Program-made: the position numbers and the translations under genes
Notes under the pieces: generated by a model
What the model was told of the DNA's origin: nothing
What the model saw: the letters and a program-made list of their open reading frames with translations, nothing else
The model's database searches: none
Shown: positions 37,876-63,992 of the stretch, in pieces
Layout: each line of letters opens with the position of its first letter
Numbering within the stretch: position 1 is the stretch's first letter
Source: Marinicella sp.
GTDB lineage: Bacteria; Pseudomonadota; Gammaproteobacteria; Xanthomonadales; Marinicellaceae
Assembly: GCA_965230295.1 (NCBI GenBank)
Contig: OZ246001.1
Location: 2,976,001 to 3,040,000 of the forward strand
Length of the DNA: 64,000 bases
Direction of reading: 5' to 3'

Positions 37876-37913
37876 CCTGATCTTTGACTGATTTTTACTT
37901 AATTAAAACCTGA
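37876..37913 (-). promoter_or_regulatory. Four 11-bp-phased TCAGG-like boxes
   Basis: Plus-strand CCTGA 37876, ACTGA 37887, CTTAA 37898, CCTGA 37909. Confidence 0.55.
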
Positions 37914-37929
37914 CTAGATATACGACTGA

Positions 37930-37959
37930 AAAAAGCTTGTTGCTAAGAACAAGCTTTTT
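37930..37959 (-). terminator. Intrinsic terminator of the 37989-39761 gene
   Basis: AAAAAGCTTGTT-gctaag-AACAAGCTTTTT. Confidence 0.75.
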
Positions 37960-37988
37960 CTTGGTTGATATGTGACAGAATTAACATA

Positions 37989-39761
37989 TTAAAATGATAA
38001 ACAGTCAAAGCCACTCTGTGAAATGAAGGGGTATTTTTCATCCTCATCAAATGAATTGTTATCTTGTGGATTTATGTCATTTATGCCACTTAATAATTCA
38101 ACAGCACCTTCAATTCTAATGAGCTCATTCAAAGGAGCATCGACGATTGCATTAATTTTGTATCTAAATGCAGCCCCTACAGGCAGATCTACTATTTCAT
38201 CAATATTACCTGTACCTGAATCAAAAGGGCAAACTGAACCACCATATGAATCACAAGTCCAAGAAAGATCTAAATATTCATTAAATGATTCGTATTCGCC
38301 TGGAAAAGAAGTCACTCGGACATTGCTGACATCCATATTACCAACATTAGTGACATCCAGGAAATATGTGGTTTCTTCATTCACACCATTCTGACAATTA
38401 GAAATGGTGACTTTGAGGTCAGGTAACTCGTCATCAAAATTCACGGCATTGATCTGTGGAATGACCAAAGGAAAGTTCTGATCAAGCGTATCGAGCGAAA
38501 ATCCTATTGTATATTCTTGATCTCCATCAGTATCCTCATCATCTTGGCCTTGAACACTGACCTCAATCGGTTGATTCCAGTTAGACTGGTCTAAGACAAT
38601 ATTTTGTTGAACCACTGTGCCTTCAGACATATCAGTTGAAAAAATTGCGATGTTGACATCATAAGCAGGTGCTTGCGTTAAACGGATAGTAAATTCATCC
38701 TCACCGCCCATTTCTGTTGTGTACAGTTCAGATCCATCATAAGTAATAATAAAATCATAAATTGCTAAATCATCCACCTGAAAATCAACTGGAACAGTAT
38801 TGGATTGATTTTGACCTGAATCTTCAGAATAAGCAAAAGCTCTGGCCGGCCCATTTGCGTATTCAATTTGAGACCTACATTCCCAAGAACCATCTGATTG
38901 AACAATTGTTCGGCAAATATCCTCACCAAGTTCACCAGTAACATACAAAGTATCATTTGGAGTTGCTGTGCCTATAAACTTTGGAAGTTTGGTATTAACT
39001 GTTCCATTAGCAGCAGGCCAGATAAACACAGGGTCAACTGTTGGGTAATAGTCTACATCGAATCTGGTCACAACAACATCAGATCGATTATCAGCAACAT
39101 CAAATGCATATGTAGAAAGTGTATGAGCGCCTTCGCCAAAGCCAGCAGGAAAATTACAGCTCCATAATCCATCTGTTCCAACTGTATTACTTAAACAATG
39201 ACGACCTCCGGAGTACATGAAAACTTGGCTTCCTTCGTCACCAGTCCCACTACCTGCTGAAAAGATTTGGTTGTAAAGAAATCCTTCAATTGGTGCCACA
39301 ATGTTTGGAGCCGCAGGTGCCACTGTATCTATAGTAACTTGAAGGGCCTCTGAATGATCAGACTCAACACCACCCACAGCAATTGGAGTTTCAGTATAAG
39401 TGATCATATAAGTGCCGTCTAATAATGGATCTGTTGGATGTATGCTAAATATTGGCGATCCAGAACAAGAACTATCCCCAATCAGAGTATTGGATGCTGG
39501 GGAATCAGAATACAAGTTAACTCGATTACCCACAGTGCATTCAACCCTAAAAGTAGGTTGATTGTGGTTGGTAATGCCATCTCCATTTACACCTGAGTCT
39601 TGCATTAAAATAGGTGGTGGATTCTGAGTCATTTGTTTTAAGCAACTTGAATCTTTTTCACATTGACCAGGTGTTGCAGAAGAACTGAGAGCCCAATGAT
39701 CAGACCACACGGGCCCGCTAATTAAAATCAAAAATAAAAATATACATTTATACATAGTCAC
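37989..39761 (-). CDS. Exported Ig-like (Big) / Calx-beta-like / DUF11 multidomain protein with variant IFxxGF tail
   Basis: Signal peptide (..GPVWS), 'DSGVNGDGITNHNQPTF', 'TIDTVAPAAP', 'DLKVTI...VTNVGN...DINPQDN'; ends PFISQSGFDCLSF. Confidence 0.8.
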   Translation of the reverse strand: MTMYKCIFLFLILISGPVWSDHWALSSSATPGQCEKDSSCLKQMTQNPPPILMQDSGVNGDGITNHNQPTFRVECTVGNRVNLYSDSPASNTLIGDSSCSGSPIFSIHPTDPLLDGTYMITYTETPIAVGGVESDHSEALQVTIDTVAPAAPNIVAPIEGFLYNQIFSAGSGTGDEGSQVFMYSGGRHCLSNTVGTDGLWSCNFPAGFGEGAHTLSTYAFDVADNRSDVVVTRFDVDYYPTVDPVFIWPAANGTVNTKLPKFIGTATPNDTLYVTGELGEDICRTIVQSDGSWECRSQIEYANGPARAFAYSEDSGQNQSNTVPVDFQVDDLAIYDFIITYDGSELYTTEMGGEDEFTIRLTQAPAYDVNIAIFSTDMSEGTVVQQNIVLDQSNWNQPIEVSVQGQDDEDTDGDQEYTIGFSLDTLDQNFPLVIPQINAVNFDDELPDLKVTISNCQNGVNEETTYFLDVTNVGNMDVSNVRVTSFPGEYESFNEYLDLSWTCDSYGGSVCPFDSGTGNIDEIVDLPVGAAFRYKINAIVDAPLNELIRIEGAVELLSGINDINPQDNNSFDEDEKYPFISQSGFDCLSF

Positions 39762-39817
39762 ACTCCATACACACGTTAATTAAGAGTCTCTATGTTAGGC
39801 CTAAACCAAAAGAAAAA

Positions 39818-39844
39818 CTTGACTATAGCCTGATCAATGTCTGA
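39818..39844 (-). promoter_or_regulatory. Three 11-bp-phased TCAGG-like boxes
   Basis: CTTGA 39818, CCTGA 39829, TCTGA 39840, upstream of the minus-strand start at 39761. Confidence 0.55.
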
Positions 39845-39980
39845 TTTCTGAAACTAAAAATAACATAAAAAGAGAGTTGCTATTCATCCATGTGGTTGTG
39901 ATTAAATGAATAATTTATTTATATTTCATGATTGTGAAATTCGCCGATTATGCTCGTTGAGACGTTTGGAACATAAGTGG

Positions 39981-40012
39981 GGATGGTTTGAAGTCTAAAT
40001 TTCAAACCATCC
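39981..40012 (-). terminator. Hairpin downstream of the 40023-41522 gene
   Basis: GGATGGTTTGAA-gtctaaat-TTCAAACCATCC; no clear U-tract. Confidence 0.55.
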
Positions 40013-40022
40013 ATGTTAATAA

Positions 40023-41522
40023 TTAGAAAGATCCATCCTCAAAAATTACATCATGCCCATGTATGATATATGCGCCTCCTGAGTTAGTACCATTAGTATT
40101 CATAGCACTGGCTCCAATAATATAGTCATTAAAGCCATCGCCATTGAAGTCATTAATCCCACTGACTGACTCACCGCCTGAATACCCCTGTTCAGCCCCC
40201 TCGATTTTCATCACATCACTCGTCCCCAGCTGGGCAACATGCATAGTGGCATCATAGGTTTGTTTGCCATAAATCAGATATGTTGTTGTTGTGCCATCGG
40301 CATTGATCAAAATATCATTGATGCGATCACCATTGACATCACCGACCCCGCTGACCGATCTGCCAAAATCGTTTCTTGTAGCAGCTCCATGAATCGAGAA
40401 ACCATTGGTGCCATCCAAACCTGACAAATAAAATTCACCAGAGGAATACTGGCTGTTGCCAAAAATCACATAGGCAGATCCGGAATGTTCTCCATTAACA
40501 TCTGCACTGGGAGCTCCAATAACAAAATCATCAATGTCATCGCCGTTGATGTCTCCCAGACCATTCAGTGAAAACCCTGAAATATCATATGCAGCCACAC
40601 CAAACAACTTCAATCCATTGGTACCATCCAGAGTGGCAAGATTAAACTGATCACCAAAACCATTTTCATTTCCGAATACAACAAAGGTGACGCCTGTATT
40701 CAGGGCACCGCCGTCTCCACCGGGAGCTCCAATTAACACATCATCAAGACCGTCATTATTGACATCACCTGCTGATGCAACCACGCCGCCCATTCCACCT
40801 GATTCGAAAAACCTTGAATTGTAGATTCTGAACCCGTTACTTCCATCCAGTGAAGAGACGTTAAATGATGCAGGAAAAGCATTCGCATTTGAACTGCCAT
40901 AAACAACGTAACAGCTATCTGCCCCCGGGGCACAAGTAATAAGATCATCAACCCCATCTTCATTGATATCACCAGCATTTGAAACTGAAGTACCAAAAAA
41001 GCCGTCCTTGGTTTCACTTAACAACTCGAATCCGTTGGTGCCATCCAGGTCTGAAATTTGAAGCAATGGATTGGACTGGGCGCCTCCAAAAACAACATAT
41101 ACGGCCCCTGAATCCCTGTCATGACTTTCGTCATTATTTGCACCAATCACGATGTCGTCATAACCGTCTGCGTTTAGATCACCTGCACTGGAAATTGAAA
41201 AACCAAAAGCCGTATATCCTGGGTTGTCTTTAATCGTAAAGCCATTTTGACCATCCAGATCTGACAATTCAAGTACACCCGAGTTTGGAATGGTCGTTCC
41301 GAAGATGACATGAACCTCGTCTTTGCCGTAAGAGCCAATGAGGAGGTCATCCAATCCGTCACCATTAAAGTCGCCTGCATGACTGACACTCATCCCTGTT
41401 TTGTAACCGTTTGATATTCCTTCTACTTTAAACCCATTAACACCATTAATTGACGAGAGGTCTAAATCAGCCCATGCAACAGGGATAAATGTCAACAAAA
41501 AGAAATTAATTAAAACACGCAC
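40023..41522 (-). CDS. Exported seven-bladed FG-GAP (integrin-alpha-like) beta-propeller protein
   Basis: Signal peptide (..PVAWA), seven GDxNxDGxDDxxIG Ca-binding repeats; ends HDVIFEDGSF. Confidence 0.88.
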   Translation of the reverse strand: MRVLINFFLLTFIPVAWADLDLSSINGVNGFKVEGISNGYKTGMSVSHAGDFNGDGLDDLLIGSYGKDEVHVIFGTTIPNSGVLELSDLDGQNGFTIKDNPGYTAFGFSISSAGDLNADGYDDIVIGANNDESHDRDSGAVYVVFGGAQSNPLLQISDLDGTNGFELLSETKDGFFGTSVSNAGDINEDGVDDLITCAPGADSCYVVYGSSNANAFPASFNVSSLDGSNGFRIYNSRFFESGGMGGVVASAGDVNNDGLDDVLIGAPGGDGGALNTGVTFVVFGNENGFGDQFNLATLDGTNGLKLFGVAAYDISGFSLNGLGDINGDDIDDFVIGAPSADVNGEHSGSAYVIFGNSQYSSGEFYLSGLDGTNGFSIHGAATRNDFGRSVSGVGDVNGDRINDILINADGTTTTYLIYGKQTYDATMHVAQLGTSDVMKIEGAEQGYSGGESVSGINDFNGDGFNDYIIGASAMNTNGTNSGGAYIIHGHDVIFEDGSF

Positions 41523-41576
41523 ATTTTTTCTCCAAATTAATTAGTGAAAAATATATTCTATGCAGTGTTATATTGT

Positions 41577-41614
41577 CCTGAGCAATTTCTGAGTTTTCAC
41601 TTGTTTTTTCCTTA
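41577..41614 (-). promoter_or_regulatory. 11-bp-phased TCAGG-like boxes
   Basis: CCTGA 41577, TCTGA 41588, CCTTA 41610. Confidence 0.5.
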
Positions 41615-42106: not shown

Positions 42107-44401
42107 ATGCAAACTTCTCAAGTTAATATAATTAATACTCCTTTTAAAGTTGGTGATTTTATAGTCAACCCTTCCTTAAGGACTATTACTAACAATAAAA
42201 AAGAAGTAGAAACCGTTCAGCCGAAGGTTATGGAACTGTTGTGCTTTTTAGCCAGTCATCAAGGCGAAGTTGTTAAAAGGGACACCATATTTGACTATGT
42301 ATGGAAAGATACTTATGTCAGTGAAGATGCGATGCACAGAACGGTATCATTGGTACGAGTGGCGCTGAATGACAATCCAAAGAAACCTGAGTACATAGTT
42401 ACAATTCCCAAAGCAGGGTATCAACTGATTGCCCCAGTTGAAATTGAAGGGAAGGAAACTGCACAACAAGATGATATTCATTATAAAAGGGCGTTTCTGG
42501 TTTTATTACCAGCATTTGTACTGTTATGGTTTTTGGTTCAATATTACACCCAACCCTCATATGCAGAAGACACAAGGGTCAGTTTTATTCCAATTAATTT
42601 GACTAAAAATGTTACATCTGAAAATTCAGATGAGTGGTTGTTTGAAGCAGGCCTTGTTTATTTAACTGAAATGATTGGGAAAAACAGCGATATCAATGCC
42701 AGAGCCCCGGTTCGTGAGTGGCGTCACAGTGAAAACAGTTCAAATTTGGCTATCAGCTTAATCGATAATGATAAAGCAGATTTGGTTGTTTTGGCAGATG
42801 TTGGAAAAGAAGAAGAGTTTTTTATATCTACGGTGCAAATCAGAGGAAGTAACGGAATTGTTGGCGAGCATCAATTCAAATCAAACTCAATCAACAGATT
42901 GATGGGTGACATCAATAACTGGGTAGGAGAGAGAGTCAGTGAGGATCAAATAGTGGTTGGCAACGATTTGATTGAGGAACAATTCCCCGAGCTCAGTGAT
43001 GATGATTATGCGGTAGAAAGTTTTTTAAGAGGGCTGTCAGCACAGCTACAAGGAGACGCAGGAAAAGCCATCAATTTTTTTGAGACGTCCATAGAACAAG
43101 ATCCTGATTTTCAATTGGCATGGTATCAGTTATCATTGGCAGAGAGGTTACAAGGTAATTATCAGAGGTCGATGGGAATATTAAATTCTCTAGAGAATTT
43201 GAAGAATGGTACATTTACTCATAGAGTTGCCAATGCAAAGGGAAATCTACTTTGGAGAACTGGAGAATATGATAAAGCTTTGGCTTCTCACGAAGTAGCG
43301 TTAACACATGCAAAAGAAGCAAAAAATCTTGATCATATAAGAAAATCTCTAGCAAACATAGCTTTGGTGAATTTAGAGTTGGGTGATACTCAAGCAGCAA
43401 GAAAAGCGCTTGATGAAGTGTTAACAATATTTAATGAAGAAAAACACGTAAAGATTCTGGGATATACTTACAATACATATGCTCGTTTGGAATATGAGGA
43501 ATATAATATAGCCGAAGCCATCGAAATGTCAAAAAAGGCCATAAATGCATTCTCATTGGAAGGAAATAGACGGGCGGAAACGAATGCAAGAGCCAGGCTT
43601 GGTGGTTATTTAATAGATATGAATCAATTTTCTGAAGCGGAAACCATTGTAACTGAAACGCTTTTTTTCAGAGAAGAATCTGATGACCGGTCTGGAATGA
43701 TTTCAAGTTATAATAAATTAGGCAAAATCTCTTTGGCTACAGGAAAGTTTGATGACGCTGAAAAACATTATATGAAAGTAACTTCACTCAGCAAGGCTTT
43801 GAAAGATAAAAATGATGAAGCTGAAAGCTACCTGAATTTAAGTCGTGTGTTTCTGATTAGCCAAGATTTACAGAAAGCCAGACTATACATTCAATTATTT
43901 AAAGATAATTCAGGTTCTGATGATGTGTCAAACATATATGCCAAAATACTTGATTTGCGTCTTGCAATTGGTGAAAAGAACTTTGAAAGCGCCCAAAAGA
44001 TTGTTGATGAGTTTGATGAACAAGATTTTCACTTGTACTACCTTTACAGTGGTGATTTTTATTATGAAACAGAAGACTATGAGTCCGCAGAGATTCAATA
44101 TCGAAAATTTCTAAATGAAATGCAGGCTAGAGGTAGAAATATTGAAATTGTTACAGGGTTTAACAGGTTGACGAGGATGTATTTGAAAACTGATATGAAA
44201 AAAGCGGCCTCAATCATAGACCAAACAAAATCATTGAATCCATTTTCATATCCTTACCTTAAATACAAGGCCATGGTAGCAAAAGAGAACAACATAGTTG
44301 ATGCTCAATCTTTGCTAAACGAACTTAAGTTATCGTCCAATGATTTTTGGTCGCCAGATGATCAAATTCTTCTGGAGCAGTACACAAAACTAATGGATTA
44401 A
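42107..44401 (+). CDS. CadC/ToxR-like membrane-anchored transcription regulator: OmpR/PhoB winged helix, TM helix, TPR sensor
   Basis: VQPKVMELLCFL...VW...VSEDAMHRTVSLVRVALND...YIVTIPKAGYQL, TM AFLVLLPAFVLLWFLV, then a long TPR array. Confidence 0.88.
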   Translation: MQTSQVNIINTPFKVGDFIVNPSLRTITNNKKEVETVQPKVMELLCFLASHQGEVVKRDTIFDYVWKDTYVSEDAMHRTVSLVRVALNDNPKKPEYIVTIPKAGYQLIAPVEIEGKETAQQDDIHYKRAFLVLLPAFVLLWFLVQYYTQPSYAEDTRVSFIPINLTKNVTSENSDEWLFEAGLVYLTEMIGKNSDINARAPVREWRHSENSSNLAISLIDNDKADLVVLADVGKEEEFFISTVQIRGSNGIVGEHQFKSNSINRLMGDINNWVGERVSEDQIVVGNDLIEEQFPELSDDDYAVESFLRGLSAQLQGDAGKAINFFETSIEQDPDFQLAWYQLSLAERLQGNYQRSMGILNSLENLKNGTFTHRVANAKGNLLWRTGEYDKALASHEVALTHAKEAKNLDHIRKSLANIALVNLELGDTQAARKALDEVLTIFNEEKHVKILGYTYNTYARLEYEEYNIAEAIEMSKKAINAFSLEGNRRAETNARARLGGYLIDMNQFSEAETIVTETLFFREESDDRSGMISSYNKLGKISLATGKFDDAEKHYMKVTSLSKALKDKNDEAESYLNLSRVFLISQDLQKARLYIQLFKDNSGSDDVSNIYAKILDLRLAIGEKNFESAQKIVDEFDEQDFHLYYLYSGDFYYETEDYESAEIQYRKFLNEMQARGRNIEIVTGFNRLTRMYLKTDMKKAASIIDQTKSLNPFSYPYLKYKAMVAKENNIVDAQSLLNELKLSSNDFWSPDDQILLEQYTKLMD

Positions 44402-44617
44402 CAGGCTCTTTTACCAAAAAGACTGAAACTTGATTCTGTTTGTTTGCGTGTTGTCGCAGTAAGGATATGGTTATTGAACTGATTTCACTCCAAATGCACC
44501 CCAGGTACAACTATTCTCAAATCACCTCTTCAGGCAGTGCTCCAAATCTCTTTCAACTGATCAGAATCTTACTTTTGCGGAATTAATTAATGTTTCAAAT
44601 TTCAGGTTTGATCAATA

Positions 44618-44655
44618 TCAGATAATAATCAGGACTTAGTAAGGTGTTGTTCTGG
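44618..44655 (+). promoter_or_regulatory. Four 11-bp-phased TCAGG-like boxes
   Basis: TCAGA 44618, TCAGG 44629, TAAGG 44640, TCTGG 44651. Confidence 0.6.
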
Positions 44656-44787
44656 TTGAGGTCGTAATCTATCAACTTTCGGAAACATGAGTTTTATTCG
44701 TTATCTGAATGTAACCTCATGCTTTGCAGTTGGTACTTTGTCAAACATTGCAAAAAGTACATTGATTAATTAAGAGAAGGAAAAGTT

Positions 44788-45789
44788 ATGAATAGTTCAA
44801 GAGGTTTTAAGAAATTAAAAGGTTTGGCGTCTGCCGGCGCATTGGGATTTGCGGGCATGTTGGGAGCAGGCACCAACCGGGGAGGAGGGAACACAGTTGG
44901 TACTTCATTTTCATTGACTGGTGACAATGTTGTATGGAATGGTTTCTATAATGGGAGATCGTTCCCCTCATCTCATGCAGTCACAACCACCAATGGAGCC
45001 GAATACACCACCGAAACTACCCCTGCCTATTGCATCACTGATGCAGTGATGTTCGAAAACTCAAGTACTTACAGTAATGCTTTTGATTGTGCGATGATTT
45101 TAGCTGTAGATGGAATTCTGTTTATGAACCCTGATTCAAGTGTGACATTAGATGGGAATACGGTAACATCAGATGTGGTTACAGACATCACTCCAGGTAT
45201 TGATGCCCAGATCCAATACCGTATATACACAGATCGAAAAGTGGTCAGAGGTTTGTACTCATTGACCAACACTACATCAAGCAGTATCGATCTCAGTGCA
45301 GCCATTTTGGGTGATTATGGTTCTGATCTCGACACCAATATTGAAACATCCAGCAATAACAATGAAACAATAGAAAATTCTGATTTGTGGTTCATCACCA
45401 GCGATCTGTTTGATTCACGCATTGCAGACAAAAACACAACCCAAGGAAGTGGAAGTAGTTATGGCCCAGTCGTGACTACTACAAGATATGGGGTTGGTGC
45501 TGAAGTCATTCCCACCAACGCCTTAACCCCGATTAATGATGGTGCTGTCTATGGTCTACGATATCAGCTTAATATTCCAGCTGGGACAACGGTTCGAATT
45601 ATGGTGTTTCATGAATTGGGTCTACCTGTACTTGCTAGTATTCCAAATCAAGTTGCAGACGCTGCTGATTTTGAATCAATGACATCATTAGATGTGGCTG
45701 GGTTGATAGATGATTTGGATGATGGCATAAGGGATACTGTTGTGAATTATGGTGACAGTGACGTCATTTTCAATAGTGGTTTTGAATGA
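44788..45789 (+). CDS. Exported hypothetical protein, NRGG-leader paralogue 1, IFxxGFE tail
   Basis: Leader FKKLKGLASAGALGFAGMLGAGTNRGG; clear paralogue of 51587-52567; ends DSDVIFNSGFE. Confidence 0.8.
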   Translation: MNSSRGFKKLKGLASAGALGFAGMLGAGTNRGGGNTVGTSFSLTGDNVVWNGFYNGRSFPSSHAVTTTNGAEYTTETTPAYCITDAVMFENSSTYSNAFDCAMILAVDGILFMNPDSSVTLDGNTVTSDVVTDITPGIDAQIQYRIYTDRKVVRGLYSLTNTTSSSIDLSAAILGDYGSDLDTNIETSSNNNETIENSDLWFITSDLFDSRIADKNTTQGSGSSYGPVVTTTRYGVGAEVIPTNALTPINDGAVYGLRYQLNIPAGTTVRIMVFHELGLPVLASIPNQVADAADFESMTSLDVAGLIDDLDDGIRDTVVNYGDSDVIFNSGFE

Positions 45790-54812: not shown

Positions 54813-55348
54813 AAATTTTAATATTCATGTTATTTTATTTGATAGTCAATAGAAAGCCCTTGGCTCTTCATTCATTTTCGTTTCCGAAAAAAATGAAAGC
54901 GAACTCGGTGAAAACACCTCTCTATTTCGGATGAGCTACGGAATTCAAGTAAGGCTAATTGCCTTTCAGGTAACTACCACGCTTTCATTACCTGCGTTGA
55001 TCCAACTGATCACCGGTTCTCCAACGAGCTGACACGTATTGAATCTTATTTACTTAATTCGCTTAATTAGAAATAGGGCAACTCACAAACACAGCTTTGG
55101 CCATATGCAAGATGTAGTTTTATTTACTTCCTTCTTACATGAGTCGAACAATCTTGTCGGTAATTCACAATTGATTAATTTCTACATGAGTACAATATCT
55201 TGTGTTTAATTCATTAGAACAGTATGTTTCCCACTAGATTTTTGAATTCAGGACAAATCACCTTGATTCAACAATGACTAAACTCTATGAATTCTTAAAA
55301 TTTGAATAAAGGTTCAAACACAATCTCTTTTTTTTTCGGATAAAACAG

Positions 55349-55375
55349 TTAGGTATAAATCAGGGTTATGTCAGG
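55349..55375 (+). promoter_or_regulatory. Three 11-bp-phased TCAGG-like boxes
   Basis: TTAGG 55349, TCAGG 55360, TCAGG 55371. Confidence 0.6.
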
Positions 55376-55428
55376 TTTTTTTCGTTCATTAGTCATTTAA
55401 TTAACCTGTTCAAAACCAAGGATTAATT

Positions 55429-57363
55429 ATGGCTAAATTTCATTATTTTTTAATACTTTTGTTCTCATGTTTCTCTTCATACGGGTCTTCCCTTTCTGGT
55501 ACGGTGACTGGAGATGGATTGCCGTTACAGGGTGCAACCGTTCATGCTCAAGACACGAATACATCGATTGAAGTAACTACTCAGACTGACATTAATGGTG
55601 ATTACACCATTCAATTATCACCAGGTACTTATGAAGTATGGGCTGATGCTCCTTCAAACGCCAATTACGGATCTTCTCCAACAGCAAACATTGTTCTTGG
55701 AACAGATCCAATTTTTTACGACATTTCTTTCATATCGCCTCCAAACCCGACTTACAACGTGAGTGGTTATGTTTTGGATCAACATGGTTTGCCTGTAACC
55801 ACAAGTCAATATCATCAAGTTACATTAGAGAATTCGGCCAATAGGTACACAATTGATGTCAACCCAGATGGGAGTTATTCAGGCGATGTCGAATCAGGCA
55901 CTTATGATGTAGAGATTTATTTCTCAGAAGACAATTCATCCTCCATGTCATACAGAGGCAGCCATGGTCAAATTACCATCTCCAACCACGATGTGATACA
56001 AGACTATATGCTAGAAATGTACACATTGGATGTCAGTGTGGTTGATACGAATGGACTTGCTGTACCAAACGCAGAAGTGTTTATTAATACATCACCATAC
56101 ATATTTGGAAATGATGACCATACTGATACAAATGGCCATTTGAGTTTGCATGCTTTGGCCCACAATAATTATAGTGTAATGGTATTTCCTCCAGTCAATT
56201 CTGGGCTGGCAAATGGAGGGGTGAGTTCTGTTGATGTGACCAATGATCAAACAGTTCAAGTAACTTTACAACCACTGCCTCAAAGATTTAATGTCAGTGG
56301 TTATGTTTTGGATCAACATGGTTTGCCTGTAACCACAAGTCAATATCATCAAGTTACATTAGAGAATTCGGCCAATAGGTACACAATCGATGTCAACCCA
56401 GATGGGAGTTATTCAGGCGATGTCGAATCAGGCACTTATGATGTAGAGATTTATTTCTCAGAAGACAATTCATCCTCCATGTCATACAGAGGCAGCCATG
56501 GTCAAATTACCATCTCCAACCACGATGTGATACAAGACTATATGCTAGAAATGTACACATTGGATGTCAGTGTGGTTGATACGAATGGACTTGCTGTACC
56601 AAACGCAGAAGTGTTTATTAATACATCACCATACATATTTGGAAATGATGACCATACTGATACAAATGGCCATTTGAGTTTGCATGCTTTGGCCCACAAT
56701 AATTATAGTGTAATGGTATTTCCTCCAGTCAATTCTGGGCTGGCAAATGGAGGGGTGAGTTCTGTTGATGTGACCAATGATCAAACAGTTCAAGTAACTT
56801 TACAACCACAGCCTCAAAGATTTAATGTCAGTGGTTATGTTTTGGATCAAGATGGTTTGCCAGTATCCAATGTAGTGGAATTATGGTTTGAGAATGTAAA
56901 TAGTAGCTACTTTATTAATACCAATCCAGATGGAAGTTACTCAGGAGATGTCGAACCAGGTACTTATGATGTAGAGATTTATTTCTCAGAAGACAATTCA
57001 TCCTCCATGTCATACAGAGGCAGCCATGGTCAAATTACCATCTCCAACCACGATGTGATACAAGACTATATGCTAGAAATGTACACATTGGATGTCAGTG
57101 TGGTTGATACGAATGGACTTGCTGTACCAAACGCAGAAGTGTTTATTAATACATCACCATACATATTTGGAAATGATGACCATACTGATACAAATGGCCA
57201 TTTGAGTTTGCGTGCTTTGGCCCACAATAATTATAGTGTAATGGTATTTCCTCCAGTCAATTCTGGGCTGGTTATTGGAGAATTGAATTCAGTTGATGTA
57301 ACCGGTGATCGAACTGTTCAGGTTATTTTGCAGCGAGTAATTATATTCAGTAGTGGGTTTTAA
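55429..57363 (+). CDS. Exported protein with carboxypeptidase-regulatory-like (prealbumin-fold) repeats, IFxxGF tail
   Basis: Signal peptide, 'SGTVTGDGLPLQGATV...TDINGDY', three 178-aa repeats; ends RVIIFSSGF. Confidence 0.82.
   Translation: MAKFHYFLILLFSCFSSYGSSLSGTVTGDGLPLQGATVHAQDTNTSIEVTTQTDINGDYTIQLSPGTYEVWADAPSNANYGSSPTANIVLGTDPIFYDISFISPPNPTYNVSGYVLDQHGLPVTTSQYHQVTLENSANRYTIDVNPDGSYSGDVESGTYDVEIYFSEDNSSSMSYRGSHGQITISNHDVIQDYMLEMYTLDVSVVDTNGLAVPNAEVFINTSPYIFGNDDHTDTNGHLSLHALAHNNYSVMVFPPVNSGLANGGVSSVDVTNDQTVQVTLQPLPQRFNVSGYVLDQHGLPVTTSQYHQVTLENSANRYTIDVNPDGSYSGDVESGTYDVEIYFSEDNSSSMSYRGSHGQITISNHDVIQDYMLEMYTLDVSVVDTNGLAVPNAEVFINTSPYIFGNDDHTDTNGHLSLHALAHNNYSVMVFPPVNSGLANGGVSSVDVTNDQTVQVTLQPQPQRFNVSGYVLDQDGLPVSNVVELWFENVNSSYFINTNPDGSYSGDVEPGTYDVEIYFSEDNSSSMSYRGSHGQITISNHDVIQDYMLEMYTLDVSVVDTNGLAVPNAEVFINTSPYIFGNDDHTDTNGHLSLRALAHNNYSVMVFPPVNSGLVIGELNSVDVTGDRTVQVILQRVIIFSSGF
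55762..57330 (+). repeat. About three tandem 534-bp near-identical intragenic repeats
   Basis: AGTGGTTATGTTTTGGATCAA recurs at 55762, 56296 and 56830. Confidence 0.9.
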
Positions 57364-57420: not shown

Positions 57421-57833
57421 CTTTTACATTATCGAGAAACTACTTCAAAAGAAGAATGAATGAGTGGTTTACTCAGATTTCGCTTTAAAAACTGTAGATA
57501 ATTCTTCTAATCCTTTGCATACCTTTTTTGATAATTGAAGTTTTTCAGGAAATCTCTTTGCTACCAATTATGCATGTGCTTATTTGTGACACTAAATTCG
57601 CCAATAATCATTAATATAGCATTTGCAATCAGAGTATCATGTTTGTGCAACAGATTAAATATTATTGAAGGTTTTTCAGAACTCATTTAAAAACTCTTGG
57701 TCTCTGGCTTAAAATGACAATGTATCATTTTCTTTACTGATTTTTTCTGTTCTTAGTATAATTTTTAAAGATCATTTAACCCTATTTATTTTTAAACACT
57801 AATTCACAATCACTTCTTTTTCGAATAAAACAG

Positions 57834-57860
57834 TTAGGTATAAATCAGGGGTATGTCAGG
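57834..57860 (+). promoter_or_regulatory. Three 11-bp-phased TCAGG-like boxes (duplicated promoter)
   Basis: TTAGG 57834, TCAGG 57845, TCAGG 57856; about 100 bp upstream is nearly identical to the 55429 promoter. Confidence 0.6.
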
Positions 57861-57913
57861 TTTTTTTCGTTCATTAGTCATTTAATTAACCTGTTGAAAA
57901 CCTGAGATTAATT

Positions 57914-60900
57914 ATGACTAAATTAAATTTTTTTCTATTACTGTTCCTTTTATCTTTTTCCGCAAATGGATCTACCATCTCTGGAACGGTGACTGGAGAT
58001 GGTTCGCCTTTGCAGGGTGCAACCATTCATGCTCAAGACACGAATACATCGATTGAAGTAACTACTCAGACTGACATAAATGGTGATTACACCATTCAAT
58101 TATCAGCTGGGACTTATGAAGTATGGGCTGATGCACCTACAAACACGAACTATGGCACGTCTCCAATTGACAGCATTGTCCTTGGAACAAACCCAGTTGC
58201 TTACAACATTGCATTTATTTCACCTCCAAATCCAACTTACAATGTCAGTGGCAATGTATTGGATCAAAATGGATCACCAATATCCAATGATGGAGGGTGG
58301 ATGAGGTTAGAGGGTTCAAATTCTAATAATAATTATAACATTGCTATAAATCCTGACGGGAGTTACTCAGGCGATGTAGAGCCAGATACTTATGGTGTGG
58401 GAATCCTTTTTCAAGAACCTATTCCATATTTTTCCTATCATAATGAAGAGCAGGGACAAATAACTGTTCCTAGTCAAAATGTGGTTCAAGATTATGTCAT
58501 CCCAATGAACACATTGGTAGTCAATGTGGTTGATTCAAATGGATTCCATATAGCAAATTCAAGTGTTGATATAGAAACTGAATCCCATATTTTTGTTAAC
58601 GAAGGTACCACTGATGCCAGTGGCCAAGTGAGCTTGCGTACTTTTGCTGATAACAACTACAAGGTTACCGTGAGTCCACCAATCAATTCGGGCCTGGTTT
58701 TTGCACATGTTAATTCTGTTGATGTAACCAGTGATCAATCGATTCAAGTTGTTTTGCAGCCACAAGCTCCAAGATTTAATGTCAGTGGCAATGTACTGGA
58801 TCAAAATGGATCACCAATATCCAATGATGGAGGGTGGATGAGGTTAGAGGGTTCAAATTCTAATAATAATTATAACATTGCTATAAATCCTGACGGGAGT
58901 TACTCAGGCGATGTAGAGCCAGATACTTATGGTGTGGGAATCCTTTTTCAAGAACCTATTCCATATTTTTCCTATCATAATGAAGAGCAGGGACAAATAA
59001 CTGTTCCTAGTCAAAATGTGGTTCAAGATTATGTCATCCCAATGAACACATTGGTAGTCAATGTGGTTGATTCAAATGGATTCCATATAGCAAATTCAAG
59101 CGTTGATATAGAAACTGAATCCCATATTTTTGTTAACGAAGGTACCACTGATGCCAGTGGCCAAGTGAGCTTGCGTGCTTTTGCTGATAATAACTACAGG
59201 GTTACGGTGAGTCCACCAATCAATTCGGGCCTGGTTTTTGCACATGTTAATTCTGTTGATGTAACCAGTGATCAATCGATTCAAGTTGTTTTGCAGCCAC
59301 AAGCTCCAAGATTTAATGTCAGTGGCAATGTACTGGATCAAAATGGATCACCAATATCCAATGATGGAGGGTGGATGAGGTTAGAGGGTTCAAATTCTAA
59401 TAATAATTATAACATTGCTATAAATCCTGACGGGAGTTACTCAGGCGATGTAGAGCCAGATACTTATGGTGTGGGAATCCTTTTTCAAGAACCTATTCCA
59501 TATTTTTCCTATCATAATGAAGAGCAGGGACAAATAACTGTTCCTAGTCAAAATGTGGTTCAAGATTATGTCATCCCAATGAACACATTGGTAGTCAATG
59601 TGGTTGATTCAAATGGATTCCATATAGCAAATTCAAGCGTTGATATAGAAACTGAATCCCATATTTTTGTTAACGAAGGTACCACTGATGCCAGTGGCCA
59701 AGTGAGCTTGCGTACTTTTGCTGATAACAACTACAAGGTTACCGTGAGTCCACCAATCAATTCGGGATTTGATTCTCAGTCAACAAATGGCAATGATTTC
59801 TCAAACGATTCTTTTTTTACCGCTGTATTGGTTTTGCCAGATATTTCAGCACCAACACTGTTGTCAGGCCCACATATAACTGATGTTTCACAATCCAGTG
59901 CAACTGTAGAATGGCAAACAGATGAACCGGCAGCAAGTATAGTAAACATCAATGGTACGACGTATTCAAATGGAAGTAATGATTACAGTACTTTGCACAA
60001 CATACTTGTTGATAATTTGCAGATCAACACTGAATATTCATTTGTTGTTGAATCTGAAGATCAATCAGGAAATACATTGGTCAGTAACACCGACAATTTC
60101 AGAACCAATGATGTTCAGGATATCCATTCACCTGTATTGACTTTTGGACCACAGGCCCATTCAATCAATCATGATCAGGTCATCATTGATTGGGAAACCA
60201 ATGAAGCAACTCATGGCATTGTCATGTATCGAGAAGAAGGAACCAATACTTGGCTGACAATCAATGATAACTCACTTGAATCCAATCATGAGGTGGTAGT
60301 TCCTGGCTTGTCATCGTCTACTCGCTATGAGTTTCAAGTATCTTCGAGTGATGCCCACCTTAACAGCCAAACCCTTTCTCAAGTTAAGACGTTTGAGACA
60401 ACTCAAAACCCTGAGTCAAATCCACCAGTCATTGTATCAGGTCCAGTACTTGTGAATTTAACCCATGATTCTGTTGCCATTGAATGGAAGACCAATGAAC
60501 CTGCCACTTCAGGGGTCTCATACAATGATGGTGTGTCTCATGGGGTTTATCAAAGCGATCATTTGGTCACCAACCATTTGGTTACTTTAAAAGGTCTTGA
60601 AGCAAGCACCCTTTACAATTTTGGTGTTTCGAGCACAGATGGCAATGGCAATGGACCTGTGTTGAGTCAAATGGATTCATTCACAACCCAAAGTCAATCA
60701 AACCCAGGTGTTCTTGATTTTGTCGGCTTACCCAAGGTGATCGGTGTGACAACAGATTCTGTGATTATCCAGGTCAGAACAACATTGCCTGCAGATTCAC
60801 TGTTAACCTTTGGTAGCAATGCCAACAGTTTGAATGACGGGGTACCGAAAACAGATCTACAAACCAGTCAATTGATACATTTGAACTCATTGAACCCAGG

Positions 60901-61843
60901 TGAAACATATTATTATCAAGTTCAATCAAGCAGTCCATCTGGTGATCAAATACAAACCAGCATTCTATCATTTGAAACACTCAGACAACCCAAGGTTCAA
61001 CCTCCATTGTTTACAGATGAGCCAAAGGTTGTTGGTCAAGACCAAGATAAATCAGTAATCAGCTGGAAAACAGATGTACCAACACGTTATGTGATCAACA
61101 GTCAATCCAATGGACAGGTCCAAAGGGTGGATCATGGTCATTTTGATAGAGAGCATACCTTTGTGTTGTCAGACCCGGGATTGAATGCGGTCGTTGACGT
61201 TGAAGTTGATGATGTCAATGGAAATCATTCGACCTATAACTTGAGTACAGCTGCTGGACTGTCGACTCCACAAACTCAGGCCACCATCCCGATTGTCGAT
61301 TACTTGAGCTCGGATAAAGCGGTGTTCAGTTGGGCTACAGCAAGTCCAGGTGACAGTCGTTTAGTCTTGAAACCGTGTGAGGCATGTGCTGAGAATCATT
61401 ATGGAAGTGTAGATATCACCAAAGACCACCAGGCCATGGTTTCAGGGTTATCTCCAGGGACAGCGTATGACGTTTATATCCGATCTAATGATGTGAATGG
61501 TGCAGAACTGGTGAATCAACAAATCCAGTTCACCACCGAACTTCAGGCAGATAAAACTAAACCAGTTATAACAGCTGTGCTGATTGAAGAGGTGCTTGGG
61601 TATGGTTCAAAGGTTTCTTGGTCAACTGATGAATTATCGACAGGTGAAGTCAGAATTCATACTGCTGATGGGGTTATTCAGCTGGGTCATATGGATGTGT
61701 CTCGCGAGCATGAAGTATATGTTTGGGTTGATTCGAATCTGATTAGTTTCATCGAAATTACTTCGATTGACTTAAGTGGTAATAAGCAAGATACATATAT
61801 AGGAGAAGATGCACCCATATTCAGGGATGGGTTTGATAATTAA
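57914..61843 (+). CDS. Large exported protein: carboxypeptidase-regulatory-like repeats plus FN3-like repeats, IFxxGFD tail
   Basis: Signal peptide, N-domain paralogous to 55429, ~three 179-aa repeats, then 'W.T.E.....H......L...T.Y.F.V.S.D' FN3-like units; ends DAPIFRDGFDN. Confidence 0.82.
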   Translation: MTKLNFFLLLFLLSFSANGSTISGTVTGDGSPLQGATIHAQDTNTSIEVTTQTDINGDYTIQLSAGTYEVWADAPTNTNYGTSPIDSIVLGTNPVAYNIAFISPPNPTYNVSGNVLDQNGSPISNDGGWMRLEGSNSNNNYNIAINPDGSYSGDVEPDTYGVGILFQEPIPYFSYHNEEQGQITVPSQNVVQDYVIPMNTLVVNVVDSNGFHIANSSVDIETESHIFVNEGTTDASGQVSLRTFADNNYKVTVSPPINSGLVFAHVNSVDVTSDQSIQVVLQPQAPRFNVSGNVLDQNGSPISNDGGWMRLEGSNSNNNYNIAINPDGSYSGDVEPDTYGVGILFQEPIPYFSYHNEEQGQITVPSQNVVQDYVIPMNTLVVNVVDSNGFHIANSSVDIETESHIFVNEGTTDASGQVSLRAFADNNYRVTVSPPINSGLVFAHVNSVDVTSDQSIQVVLQPQAPRFNVSGNVLDQNGSPISNDGGWMRLEGSNSNNNYNIAINPDGSYSGDVEPDTYGVGILFQEPIPYFSYHNEEQGQITVPSQNVVQDYVIPMNTLVVNVVDSNGFHIANSSVDIETESHIFVNEGTTDASGQVSLRTFADNNYKVTVSPPINSGFDSQSTNGNDFSNDSFFTAVLVLPDISAPTLLSGPHITDVSQSSATVEWQTDEPAASIVNINGTTYSNGSNDYSTLHNILVDNLQINTEYSFVVESEDQSGNTLVSNTDNFRTNDVQDIHSPVLTFGPQAHSINHDQVIIDWETNEATHGIVMYREEGTNTWLTINDNSLESNHEVVVPGLSSSTRYEFQVSSSDAHLNSQTLSQVKTFETTQNPESNPPVIVSGPVLVNLTHDSVAIEWKTNEPATSGVSYNDGVSHGVYQSDHLVTNHLVTLKGLEASTLYNFGVSSTDGNGNGPVLSQMDSFTTQSQSNPGVLDFVGLPKVIGVTTDSVIIQVRTTLPADSLLTFGSNANSLNDGVPKTDLQTSQLIHLNSLNPGETYYYQVQSSSPSGDQIQTSILSFETLRQPKVQPPLFTDEPKVVGQDQDKSVISWKTDVPTRYVINSQSNGQVQRVDHGHFDREHTFVLSDPGLNAVVDVEVDDVNGNHSTYNLSTAAGLSTPQTQATIPIVDYLSSDKAVFSWATASPGDSRLVLKPCEACAENHYGSVDITKDHQAMVSGLSPGTAYDVYIRSNDVNGAELVNQQIQFTTELQADKTKPVITAVLIEEVLGYGSKVSWSTDELSTGEVRIHTADGVIQLGHMDVSREHEVYVWVDSNLISFIEITSIDLSGNKQDTYIGEDAPIFRDGFDN
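58241..59767 (+). repeat. About 2.8 tandem 537-bp near-identical intragenic repeats
   Basis: AATGTCAGTGGCAATGTA recurs at 58241, 58778 and 59315. Confidence 0.9.
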
Positions 61844-61859
61844 TCTTAATATACATTTA

Positions 61860-61889: not shown

Positions 61890-62101
61890 CTTCTCATTAT
61901 TGAGCTAAATCTTCATATGATGATTTGTAGTAGTCCCGGCTTGATTAGACAGATCACCTGATTTAGTTCAAGATTTTGTCAGGGTCATATATTTGAGACG
62001 TTATCTGTCAAAATTCTTGCCAACACCAACCTTTTGATGAATTTAATTTAATAGCGTAATTTAAATTCAGGAAATGAACTGTTCTGCAAGATTGACCACA
62101 T

Positions 62102-62545
62102 TTAATAGATTGGATGAAGTCTTTCCTCTTCATTCTTTATGCGAACAATCAAAGCACTTTTTGCTAATTTGAGGTCATTGATGAATTCAATTTTAAGGAA
62201 ATTATTTTCATCGTATTCAGTGTCTAAATACTTACTCATTAATTTTCGAATGATTGTGTTTAACCTGAGTGTTTTTCTTTGTATGTCACAAACAGTATTT
62301 CTTTCTTTTGATCCCATTTTGAATTTATTTTTTAAGAAAGCATAAAGCTGTATATTTTCCTTGATAAAGTGTTTATATATCAAACTTCTTAAGTCCGAAA
62401 GGTGTGAAAGTGCTTTGGGCCAATTGTTAAATTGAGAAATTTCAACTTCTATGATGTCGAATAAATCGATCATTAAATCATGCTCATTATTTAGCTCTTT
62501 AAGTAAATTTGATTTATTATGGTTTTTTTTGTTCTTTTTTTTCAT
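62102..62545 (-). CDS. Hemerythrin-like (HHE) domain protein
   Basis: EHDLM...HFIKENIQLY...RIKNEEERLHPIY four-helix pattern; start uncertain (ATG 62545 chosen). Confidence 0.6.
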   Translation of the reverse strand: MKKKNKKNHNKSNLLKELNNEHDLMIDLFDIIEVEISQFNNWPKALSHLSDLRSLIYKHFIKENIQLYAFLKNKFKMGSKERNTVCDIQRKTLRLNTIIRKLMSKYLDTEYDENNFLKIEFINDLKLAKSALIVRIKNEEERLHPIY

Positions 62546-62710
62546 GTTCTTCAAAATTTTTAAATGTGGCAATATTTTGAAAAAATAATCAAATAGAGTA
62601 CTGACCGAACTCTGTTTTTTTGCTTATTTTGTTCTGATTTTATTGCTGGCTGAGTGAACCAATGTACATAGTGAACAATTTAAATATTCAGAAAAGATGA
62701 ATATTACATT

Positions 62711-62908
62711 TTAACTCACACAAATGGTTTTAATGACTTCTAATGTATCATCCATAGTATTGTCAAAGGGGTAGTCATCGTTTGAATTTAGGAAAAAGTC
62801 ATCATCGATTAAACTGTCATCAGGAAAAACATCTAAAGCATCGACCTCATCTGCTGGAGCCATTTGATCAAAGGAATAAACCATCTCATCGTTGGTATTA
62901 AGTTTCAT
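62711..62908 (-). CDS. Small, very acidic hypothetical protein
   Basis: 65 aa, Asp-rich, strong RBS GAGGTG close to the ATG. Confidence 0.6.
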   Translation of the reverse strand: MKLNTNDEMVYSFDQMAPADEVDALDVFPDDSLIDDDFFLNSNDDYPFDNTMDDTLEVIKTICVS

Positions 62909-62935
62909 ATATCACCTCATAAATATTTTGTTAGT

Positions 62936-63124
62936 TCAAAATTCAATTGTTTCAAAGCCTTTTATTTCACTGAGTAATAAAATAGATCTAAATGAAGATT
63001 CAGAATCCACAATCAATAAGTGATACATTACTTTTTTTAATTTGCAAATCGCTTGATCGCCATTTTTGAGAAACAACCTGATGGTTGCACCTTTATAAAA
63101 TTGGTTTAATAGTTGGGTTCTCAT
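62936..63124 (-). CDS. Small hypothetical protein, possible Sm/Hfq-like fold
   Basis: 62 aa, RBS GAGGT; helix followed by 'IRLFLKNG...KL...LLIV...ILLLSEIKGF', resembling the Sm1/Sm2 pattern. Confidence 0.55.
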   Translation of the reverse strand: MRTQLLNQFYKGATIRLFLKNGDQAICKLKKVMYHLLIVDSESSFRSILLLSEIKGFETIEF

Positions 63125-63319
63125 GTCATACCTCTACTTGGTTATTAAAACATGATCCCAGTTTATGTAGAAAGATGAAATTTGCCCTGATCAGAATCAA
63201 ATTAATTTCTGTTTTTTTTATTAAAAAACTAAAAAAAATATGAAAAAAACATGAAAAACCACTAAATTCCAACGCTATGAACATAATGTCTAAATTTAAC
63301 GTGCAATTCAATCAACAAA

Positions 63320-63565
63320 CTACAAATTGCTCATAGCTTTTCCTGAAGAATTGATACCACCTGAGTTTGTAATAGGTGTGCCAATAATCAGATCATCAAT
63401 AACATCACCATTGACATCACAGGCATGGCTAGCAAATCTACCAATATAGTCCTCTGCTTTGTACCGATCTAATTTTGACAGATATATGATTGTGCTAAAT
63501 TAAACAAAAACTAATTGGTAACCTAAGGTTAAAGTCGCAAAACGACCTGTTTTTTTAATATTCAT
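63320..63565 (-). pseudogene. Relic of an FG-GAP exported protein gene
   Basis: Reads MNIKKTGRFATLTLGYQLVFV*FSTIIYLSKL...ACDVNGDVIDDLIIGTP...SSGKAMSNL*; in-frame stop after the signal peptide and only one blade left. Confidence 0.8.
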
Positions 63566-63676
63566 TTGTATTTTTTGGCGAATCACCTATCGATATTAAT
63601 TGTAGATAAGAGAATTTATTGTTTCCTTACTTAAATATCAGTTGAGCTTTAATTATGCTCAACACTGCAAAATATA

Positions 63677-63713
63677 CATGATGAAATTATGATTTATTCC
63701 TGACATTACCTGT
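63677..63713 (-). promoter_or_regulatory. Degenerate phased boxes upstream of the FG-GAP pseudogene
   Basis: CATGA 63677, TATGA 63688, CCTGA 63699; region similar to 48680-48735. Confidence 0.4.
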
Positions 63714-63943
63714 ATTTCGTCAAAACCTTATGGGCCAATAACCGTTTGCTTTATAGTGTGCTTCATTATGTTTAAATTGGAGGGTGGCTACTGATACCTG
63801 TTTTCGGTGAACCACATACTAATTTAAGGAAAAATATAGTTATTAGACATAGAGCCTGATAACTTAGATTGTTTGGTTGTATATTTAAAAATCCAAAGAT
63901 TCAAGCATACGAATATGATCCCATTACGAAAGTCTTCGATTTT

Positions 63944-63992
63944 ATCAATATCAGATAATAATCAGGGCAAAATAAGGTTTTATATTGGTAGG
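63944..63992 (+). promoter_or_regulatory. Third copy of the NRGG-gene promoter box array
   Basis: ATCAATATCAGATAATAATCAGG is identical to 44611-44633; TCAGA 63951, TCAGG 63962, TAAGG 63973. Confidence 0.65.

Follow-up and report, generated by a model that had tools for sequence, protein, structure and literature searches.

TCAGG direct-repeat arrays with PhoB-like promoter geometry and a candidate membrane-anchored regulator in a surface-protein island of Marinicella sp.

The window analyzed here is a 64,000-bp stretch of the Marinicella sp. genome (G000:C1:2,976,001–3,040,000; single contig, 4.008 Mb, 44% G+C). In its right part, genes for secreted repeat proteins with signal-peptide-like N-termini are preceded by arrays of TCAGG-like pentamers, repeated head to tail with a period of 11 bp. 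These genes belong to a 51-kb island encoding secreted adhesin-like proteins. The island also encodes a 764-aa protein (42107–44401) with a winged helix-turn-helix (wHTH), a transmembrane (TM) segment and tetratricopeptide repeats (TPRs). Judged from the sequence, the arrays would be activator operators of PhoB-like geometry and their most likely binder is this regulator of the island itself, a reading with a probability of roughly 60%. The original prediction had proposed the same regulator or a paralogue elsewhere, and had considered the whole set of proteins ending in the C-terminal tail [ILV]FxxGF(E/D) as its regulon. The regulator is still the best candidate, being the sole wHTH protein of the island, encoded by an array-free gene and having homologues with arrays beside them. 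The regulon cannot be equated with the tail set.

Arrays of 11-bp units and their promoter geometry

All 25 TCAGG-like pentamers originally listed are present and in phase. Eleven of them are TCAGG, six are TCAGA, seven differ from TCAGG at one base (three TAAGG, two TTAGG, TCTGG and TCAAG), and TCTAG at 51433 differs at two. The pattern TCAGR-N6-TCAGR is seen nine times in the window, while 100 dinucleotide shuffles give 0.43 ± 0.70 copies and never reach nine. Genome-wide there are 52 copies, 19 of which are fully within the 9.8% of the genome outside crude open reading frames (ORFs), and 12 of these 19 fall in 3.010–3.065 Mb. The corresponding non-ORF counts at spacers of 4, 5, 7 and 8 bp are 3, 6, 5 and 1, and a scan of spacers 0–35 has one peak of 19 copies at spacer 6 and another of 11 copies at spacer 17. 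TCAGR pairs are also in excess at spacers 1, 23 and 25 in intergenic DNA genome-wide (12, 21 and 12 against a background of ~4); this excess, itself unexplained, probably comes from other repeated elements.

A position weight matrix (PWM) was built from 18 distinct intergenic dimers, and the scores of three units were summed. The unit consensus is TAAATCAGGAT (wAAATCAGGwT) with the core T[C/A]AG[G/A], in which TAAGG is a recurrent variant. The conserved part is the G/C-containing core TCAGG, and the A/T flanks are less conserved. In non-ORF DNA, 68 three-unit windows reach at least 16 bits at period 11, against 2–5 at periods 8, 9, 10, 12, 13 and 14. ORF DNA, which is 11-fold larger, has 23 such windows at period 11. 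Merging the sites of at least 14 bits in the genome leaves 109, and the strong ones are nearly all intergenic. The three further arrays reported at 37876–37913, 63677–63703 and 63951–63977 are among them, as 37874–37917(−), 63675–63718(−) and 63936–63990(+). Chance is rejected as the main explanation of the arrays.

About 33 array sites span 3,011,635–3,062,797, that is, from 35,635 of the window to 23 kb past its end. As originally seen by eye, the left half is free of them: positions 1–35,000 contain no PWM window of at least 14 bits and no TCAG-N7-TCAG, against 28 and 11 in 35,001–64,000. One exact match, at 36694, sits inside an ORF and is probably due to chance. In the island intergenic DNA, the top enriched hexamers that are not pure A/T are AATCAG (55 vs 19.6 expected) and ATCAGG (34 vs 10.4).

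Gene duplication alone is insufficient to generate this distribution, as was originally argued. Once the array sequence is masked, the flanks of 42 arrays separate into 40 similarity clusters; recent duplication therefore does not account for them. A promoter module of ~120 bp is nevertheless shared by 44603–44657, 51396–51439 and 63936–63990, each with ~60 bp downstream. Its conservation is focused on the units, with 35 invariant columns in 54 positions compared with 30 in the preceding 133. Because one of the three copies of this array and 5′-leader fronts an unrelated gene, copying of promoter modules is suggested.

The arrays are oriented with the downstream gene (37 sense vs 10 antisense), in agreement with the original prediction. 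In a set of 41 non-identical intergenic arrays scoring 16 bits or more, a −10-like hexamer (at least 5/6 matches) is placed exactly 29 bp past the start of the last unit in 11 cases. In four it is found at offset 18, corresponding to 29 minus 11, and each of the other offsets is seen 0–2 times. Under a looser −10 rule, 28 of 42 arrays are in phase, with the consensus AAATCAG-N4-AAATCAGg-N4-ATCAGGT (AAATCAG..A.AAATCAGg.TT..ATCAGGT). When the arrays are aligned on the −10 hexamer, the distance from the proximal TCAG to the cATAAT box is 25 bp. As the −10 hexamer is assumed to occupy −12 to −7 of a predicted start, the proximal core would correspond to about −37 to −33. No −35 box is recognisable in 25 of 27 in-phase promoters, where the best match to TTGACA at spacers of 16–18 bp is 3/6 or lower.

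In pho boxes and other class II OmpR/PhoB-type sites, the proximal repeat takes the place of the −35 element, and its spacing to the −10 box is fixed. Two hallmarks of a pho-box-like operator are seen here: direct repeats with a period of 11 bp, and, relative to the predicted starts, a proximal repeat in place of the −35 element. Period, gene orientation, fixed −10 distance and missing −35 box fit what would be expected of activator sites of the OmpR/PhoB type, the family of binder originally suspected.

The top enriched hexamer of all in the island intergenic DNA (genome 3,011,000–3,063,000) is AATTAA, with 90 copies against 34.5 expected. It often takes the form TTAATTAA, placed downstream of the −10 box and ahead of the start codon. 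The cATAATTAA context of the −10 box accounts for part of the excess, and the remainder is unexplained.

The island, its targets and the C-terminal tail

The G+C content drops along the window from 45–49% in the left part to 30–42% from ~28 kb onward; left of the low-GC island it is 44–49%. The island contains 28 crude genes (genome 3,011,734–3,062,697), and 23 of them have their own array. Three others trail another gene by 7–55 bp and look operon-internal. The remaining two, without arrays, are the regulator gene and a 92-aa ORF, and only the former is sizeable. Genes just outside the island have no array on either side.

The secreted repeat proteins of the window include FG-GAP, CarboxypepD_reg/fn3 and Big_13/DUF11 proteins (Table 1) and two paralogous proteins of 333–335 aa that have no family match. 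Most of the secreted repeat proteins terminate in [ILV]FxxGF(E/D). The tail is proteome-wide: of the 1,961 genes whose upstream region could be used, ~88 encode it within the last 14 residues, and nearly all of these proteins have signal-peptide-like N-termini. Seven tail proteins scanned against Pfam, and three of them against NCBIfam, have no match at the tail. A literature search on DGFE or C-terminal tails found nothing, and the available part of PMC7691419 contains nothing on tails. The tail is a candidate sorting or secretion signal.

An array had been predicted before every tail-bearing gene. This is true in the window (8/8) and not in the genome, where 14 of the 88 tail genes have an upstream array, compared with 23 of 1,873 other genes. 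Outside the island, arrays are found at 4/76 tail genes and 14/1,857 other genes (p = 0.004, one duplicated pair included). Inside the island, 10 of 12 tail genes and 9 of 16 non-tail genes have them, and the difference is not significant (p = 0.22). All 256 tetramers were also examined as direct repeats at spacers 0–20 (5,376 tests), with the upstream DNA of tail genes set against that of non-tail genes. The top rank goes to TCAG-N18-TCAG (p = 1e-8; 11/29 in tail genes) and the third to TCAG-N7-TCAG (p = 5e-6; 9/32).

The proposal that the regulon is the whole tail-protein set is therefore not borne out: 74 of the ~88 tail genes have no array, and arrays front non-tail units, including a GT4 glycosyltransferase gene at 35734, a unit without ORF at 37874, a hemerythrin-like gene (62102–62572) and small ORFs. 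Targets outside the island encode DUF285, FG-GAP, Ig-like and beta-helix proteins, the same families as in the island. Since most tail genes have no arrays and island genes have them with or without the tail, the most fitting description of the regulon is the island together with genes of these surface-protein families scattered elsewhere. The link between array and tail is indirect.

Candidate regulator, its homologues and other explanations

The N-terminal wHTH of the 764-aa protein matches Trans_reg_C (PF00486) at residues 37–107 with 57.8 bits (cut-off 26.2). A single hydrophobic segment follows at ~126–148, the only place where the Kyte-Doolittle value of a 19-residue window exceeds 1.6, with a K-R flank on its N-terminal side. 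TPR families of Pfam match residues 296–680, a region predicted to be periplasmic. Based on this predicted topology, the layout is that of ToxR and CadC: an N-terminal wHTH, one TM segment and, at the C-terminal end, a domain outside the cytoplasm. Among NCBIfam models, CadC fits the N-terminus best (residues 11–125, E 7e-25). CadC proper can be rejected, with 87.9 bits against a cut-off of 400 for the equivalog NF007540 and an alignment confined to residues 11–125. An OmpR-family response regulator is rejected, too, as the 17 Pfam families matching at E ≤ 0.01 do not include Response_reg, and so is a SARP/AfsR-type activator, with no BTAD match and a TM segment after the wHTH. The genome encodes 23 Trans_reg_C proteins, and the 764-aa regulator is the only one inside the island. 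Apart from an IS3-type HTH remnant, Pfam finds no transcription-factor domain in the other island ORFs examined.

Relatives provide a further line of evidence. Family members at E ≤ 1e-20 are present in 35 of 61 genomes. A word-index homology search with the regulator gave nothing at E ≤ 1e-20; it was probably swamped by TPR words and is no evidence that the protein stands alone. A strict two-unit pattern was run against 44 genomes from this bacterial family, with 5 hits in total for the reversed-pattern control. The hand tally counts 86 hits of the pattern in 30 genomes. Among the genomes covered by both homology and pattern searches, 5/5 multi-unit arrays in the hand tally are at most 8 kb from a family regulator, for which the chance is ~1%. 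In five genomes of a second genus, a AAATCAGAATT-type triplet is directly upstream of a large secreted-protein gene (613–1,579 aa as called), and a ~760-aa regulator is encoded next to it or at most 4 kb away.

Forty-three loci were also picked solely by regulator homology (gene ± 5 kb). At period 11, nine of these loci contain between them 13 non-ORF array windows that score 16 bits or more; at period 10, six loci contain 8, and periods 8, 9, 12, 13 and 14 have 0–1. These arrays abut the regulator gene and face genes for IFxDGFE-tail proteins or for a ~175-aa membrane protein; the IFxxGF-type tails of the relatives are the same as here. When the array-linked regulators are compared with the proteins of this genome, the island regulator comes out first (E 8e-28, over its full length). 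The flanks of the three closest regulator homologues show almost nothing at the strict threshold, and TTTCAGAAC- or TCAGA-type arrays beside two of the three at a lower one. Arrays beside full-length wHTH-TM-TPR homologues in genomes of the same family support the proposed regulator. A pattern scan for three exact units in all species genomes is uninformative; the matches listed are in scattered unrelated taxa.

The ~175-aa protein has two TM segments and its own array, and its gene is beside the regulator gene in several relatives (L149:7427–7948, L159:4309–4815, L160:4202–4726 and L151:10097–10633). It is possibly a co-component. No homologue is found in this genome.

Two other membrane paralogues of this genome adjoin period-11 repeats of their own. 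One has TCAG-type repeats at 1,436,088. The other is encoded at 120,591–122,495, beside three ATCATCA units with a period of 11 bp at 120,490–120,522(−), and a tail-protein gene comes next; here another regulator could be paired with an operator built on a different unit. On these grounds the regulator-operator principle looks general, and one paralogue would correspond to one motif.

Several facts weigh against the island regulator as the binder. There is no sign of autoregulation, with no array in the 585 bp upstream of its gene (best three-unit score 2.5 bits), a property of many such activators. The genome holds 22 other Trans_reg_C and 12 LytTR proteins, and about ten arrays are 0.6–1.8 Mb away from the regulator gene. 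None of 60 relatives searched has a homologue above 33% identity, so what the comparison connects are paralogues within the family and not orthologues. With this PWM, arrays are seen at just ~9–14 of the 43 regulator loci, and the loci show some signal at period 10, too. The recognition helix, SEDAMHRTVSLVRVAL in the island regulator, is unlike those of array-linked homologues (TENSIDQIISKLRK and TENTIDQCISKLRK) at most positions, although the DNA core is the same. Finally, no array is upstream of the 60–62% identical orthologues of gene 44788 in two genomes of the same genus (best scores −6.9 and 4.7 bits). The array sites are therefore not conserved by descent, and these array-free promoters point to recent growth of the regulon, partly by promoter-module copying.

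If the island regulator is the binder, the mechanism could be considered as follows. Two to five head-to-tail units of 11 bp would form the array on one face of the helix, with the proximal core at about −37 to −33, in the place of the −35 element and 25 bp upstream of cATAAT. OmpR/PhoB-type winged helices bound in tandem would recruit RNA polymerase to these −35-less promoters, in the manner of PhoB at pho boxes. The regulator would thereby switch on ~26 island genes in ~23 transcription units, and a few distant genes of the same families (FG-GAP, DUF285/PARCEL, Ig-like and beta-helix). The trigger might be a periplasmic signal sensed by the TPR part.

Another OmpR/PhoB-family protein, either a response regulator or a membrane paralogue, might instead bind the arrays, with the island regulator controlling something else or a subset. 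This is improbable, and it is the alternative that survives best. The number of Trans_reg_C proteins, one of 249 aa encoded 13 kb past the island, would allow it, as would the arrays at several distant loci, the island recognition helix unlike those of homologues beside near-identical units, and the TCAG-type and ATCATCA-type repeats next to other membrane paralogues. However, the island has no other Trans_reg_C gene, arrays in other genomes adjoin the wHTH-TM-TPR family and not response regulators, and the regulator gene is conspicuously array-free amid 23 array promoters.

It is quite unlikely that the same regulator is a repressor or silencer blocking the −35 region. The proximal unit does overlap the region contacted by RNA polymerase, and low-GC DNA such as this island (30–42% vs 44–49% to the left) is often silenced. 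Yet a usable −35 hexamer is missing from 25 of the 27 anchored promoters, which should consequently be weak unaided, and the fixed −10 phase and co-orientation fit recruitment of the polymerase. OmpR/PhoB-type sites that replace the −35 element, such as the pho box and SARP sites, are activating.

The least likely explanation, without a dedicated regulator, considers the arrays as a duplicated promoter module, DNA-bending phased A/T tracts or sites of an unrelated family such as LytTR; the shared ~120-bp module, the phased A-runs of the units, the 12 LytTR regulators and the array-free orthologous promoters of relatives are outweighed by the 40 dissimilar flank clusters, the unit-centred conservation of the module (35/54 vs 30/133), the conserved TCAGG core in place of A/T flanks, and like arrays beside homologous regulators in two genera. 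The LytTR-type operator consists of 9-bp direct repeats ~21 bp apart, with a LytTR regulator nearby. The units here are adjacent at 11 bp with conserved middle units (TAAGG), and none of the 12 LytTR genes is in the island. LytTR sites are unlikely as the main explanation.

With the island regulator as the binder, a wider scheme can be speculated, which is doubtful. wHTH-TM-TPR regulators, T[C/A]AGG arrays and IFxxGF(E/D)-tailed proteins might be family-wide modular cassettes. Here, the operator of one paralogue might have spread, partly by module copying, to more than 40 promoters, making the 51-kb island a single expression hub by the membrane. The periplasmic TPR part might read the tails of the regulon products, so that export or accumulation feeds back on transcription. 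TPR domains read C-terminal peptides elsewhere. Prediction of a complex between regulator residues 151–764 (alignment A1) and the C-terminal 44 residues of the 44788 tail protein gives a score of 0.00, which is neither for nor against binding.

Sites along the island and comparison with known systems

The array sites of the window are shown in Table 1, together with the regulator and two other features.

Table 1. Array sites and associated features in the window. Tail, [ILV]FxxGF(E/D) at the C-terminus; L001, DNA just past the window end.
Feature	Position	Strand	Score or basis	Downstream gene or remark
Array, 4 units (ATAATCAGTAA AAAGTAAGGTA TAAATCAGTAA TAGAACAGTTA)	35635–35678	+	PWM 24.0 bits	GT4 gene 35734–37065
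GT4 glycosyltransferase gene	35734–37065	+	Pfam Glycos_transf_1	No tail; downstream of 35635 array
Candidate non-coding transcript, ~100 nt, ending in strong hairpin and U-run	37725–37845	−	Fold −28.5 kcal/mol, z −6.75	
Array, 4 units, then AATAAT −10 box at offset 29	37874–37917	−	PWM 20.9 bits	
Array, 3 units	39816–39848	−	PWM 23.5 bits	Big_13/DUF11 gene 37989–39761 (Pfam), tail-like FISQSGFDCLSF
Array, 2 strong units, TCAGA and TCAGG	41564–41607	−	PWM 16.3 bits	FG-GAP gene 40023–41522(−), tail VIFEDGSF
Candidate regulator, 764 aa, wHTH-TM-TPR	42107–44401	+	Pfam Trans_reg_C, TPR families; NCBIfam CadC	
Array, 5 units, strong ones TCAGA, TCAGG, TAAGG	44603–44657	+	PWM 27.5 bits	333-aa tail protein gene 44788–45789(+)
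Array, TCAGG units 22 bp apart, middle unit degenerate, CATAAT at offset 29	48707–48739	−	PWM 16.3 bits	FG-GAP gene 46943–48577(−), tail
Array, 4 units	50767–50810	−	PWM 20.6 bits	FG-GAP gene 49022–50614(−), tail
Array, 4 units	51396–51439	+	PWM 28.0 bits	Tail protein gene 51560–52567(+)
Array, TTAGG, TCAGG, TCAGG	55345–55388	+	PWM 28.9 bits	CarboxypepD_reg/fn3 repeat gene 55429–57363(+), tail; 40 bp before start codon
Array, paralogous to 55345	57830–57873	+	PWM 27.3 bits	1309-aa CarboxypepD_reg/fn3 gene 57914–61843(+), tail
Weak array-like site, uncertain	61953–61985	+	PWM 17.2 bits; ORF list	Downstream gene not clear
Array	62598–62641	−	PWM 22.1 bits	Hemerythrin-like gene 62102–62572 (Pfam Hemerythrin), no tail
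Array	63184–63216	−	PWM 17.6 bits	Small ORFs 62936–63124 (62 aa), 62711–62908 (65 aa)
Array, in-phase GCATAAT-type −10	63675–63718	−	PWM 26.0 bits	Apparent FG-GAP remnant ~63320–63640
Array, 5 units, module as at 44603 and 51396	63936–63990	+	PWM 29.4 bits; alignment A2	Rsd/AlgQ-hemerythrin-like gene past window end (L001:114–620, +; Pfam)

The ORF list contains no ORF of at least 20 aa downstream of the array at 37874. None of 200 shuffles folds as well as the terminator hairpin of the transcript predicted there, and Rfam finds no family in window positions 35000–64000, including this transcript. It is a candidate small RNA that may be under regulon control.

Two genes follow tail protein genes closely. 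A TIGR03032/DUF4915 gene (45874–46914, −) comes 28 bp after the FG-GAP gene 46943–48577, and a TPR-sulfotransferase gene (52623–54812, +; Pfam Sulfotransfer_3) 55 bp after 51560–52567. Judging from these gaps, both are probably co-transcribed with the preceding gene, which hints that sulfation or another modification is tied to the regulon.

The arrays at 55345 and 57830 belong to the same flank cluster, and the translated products of both genes have three near-identical internal repeats of ~190 aa each. The small ORFs 62936–63124 and 62711–62908 match no Pfam family. At ~63320–63640(−), a short ORF resembling the signal peptide of FG-GAP proteins is followed by stops and then by an FG-GAP-like repeat fragment, which reads as a decayed FG-GAP paralogue. 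The hemerythrin-fold paralogues 62102–62572(−) and L001:114–620(+) have one array each; the latter product scores 34 bits (cut-off 35) against Rsd/AlgQ, a sigma-70 regulator.

Past the window end, L001:5808–19893 (genome 3,045,808–3,059,893) encodes a run of six surface proteins with DUF285/PARCEL repeats, among them one that contains an HpiC1-cyclase-like domain. IFxNGFE tails are found on most of the six, and every gene is preceded by a three-unit array of its own, the end of which is 50–53 bp from the start codon. Two ORFs with arrays in front share a split EAL domain (L001:2848–3309 and 3328–3531, +), near an 89-aa remnant of an IS3-type HTH_Tnp_1 protein (L001:1742–2011, −). These are signs of decay or mobile DNA within the island.

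To our knowledge, membrane-anchored one-component regulators are widespread and few of their operators are known. Here, unannotated intergenic DNA becomes a defined, testable regulon, with a motif, a promoter architecture, ~40 target promoters and one candidate regulator, none of them described in this lineage. The whole wHTH-TM-TPR subfamily gains a predicted type of operator, and with it many natural regulator-operator pairs for the study of how specificity evolves. The 23 array promoters in 51 kb around the regulator gene offer a system for how a membrane-tethered factor reaches many promoters. The analysis also brings to light the IFxxGF(E/D) tail of ~88 secreted proteins, for which no model or paper was found. 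Literature searches on ToxR-like/TPR proteins and on OmpR, TCAGG and direct repeats found nothing on the motif, the regulator subfamily, the operator or the regulon.

PhoB at the pho box of E. coli and PhoP of M. tuberculosis bind through the same type of OmpR/PhoB winged helix. According to the available part of PMC4832192, PhoP has direct repeats of ~7 bp with a 4-bp spacer, that is, a period of 11 bp as here. Unlike PhoB and PhoP, the regulator here has no receiver domain and is predicted to be membrane-anchored with a TPR ectodomain. The sites differ as well, with the core T[C/A]AGG, up to five units and more than 40 copies, mostly in one 51-kb island.

SARPs bind heptameric direct repeats with 11-bp spacing that overlap the −35 element of clustered target promoters. 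SARPs and AfsR of Streptomyces are wHTH activators, some with TPR domains, in the available text of PMC10936776 and PMC5930380. They are cytoplasmic and contain BTAD, and the large ones contain a NOD ATPase; the protein here has no BTAD, and its TPR part is beyond the TM segment.

ToxR, TcpP, CadC, PsaE and VtrA, the transmembrane transcription regulators (TTRs), likewise have an N-terminal cytoplasmic wHTH, one TM helix and a periplasmic sensor. TTRs are described as widespread in the available part of PMC10269533, the main text of which has 0 occurrences of "TPR" or "tetratricopeptide". Regulators of the VtrA/VtrB type control a whole island, Vp-PAI, as stated in the accessible text of PMC2800187. 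Unlike in these TTRs, the sensor here has ~600 residues with TPR repeats, and the protein is not a CadC orthologue. By analogy, the system might work like PhoB at pho boxes and, at the same time, like the membrane one-component activators ToxR, TcpP, CadC and VtrA. What is unusual here is the density of the regulon and the family-wide pairing of regulator and operator.

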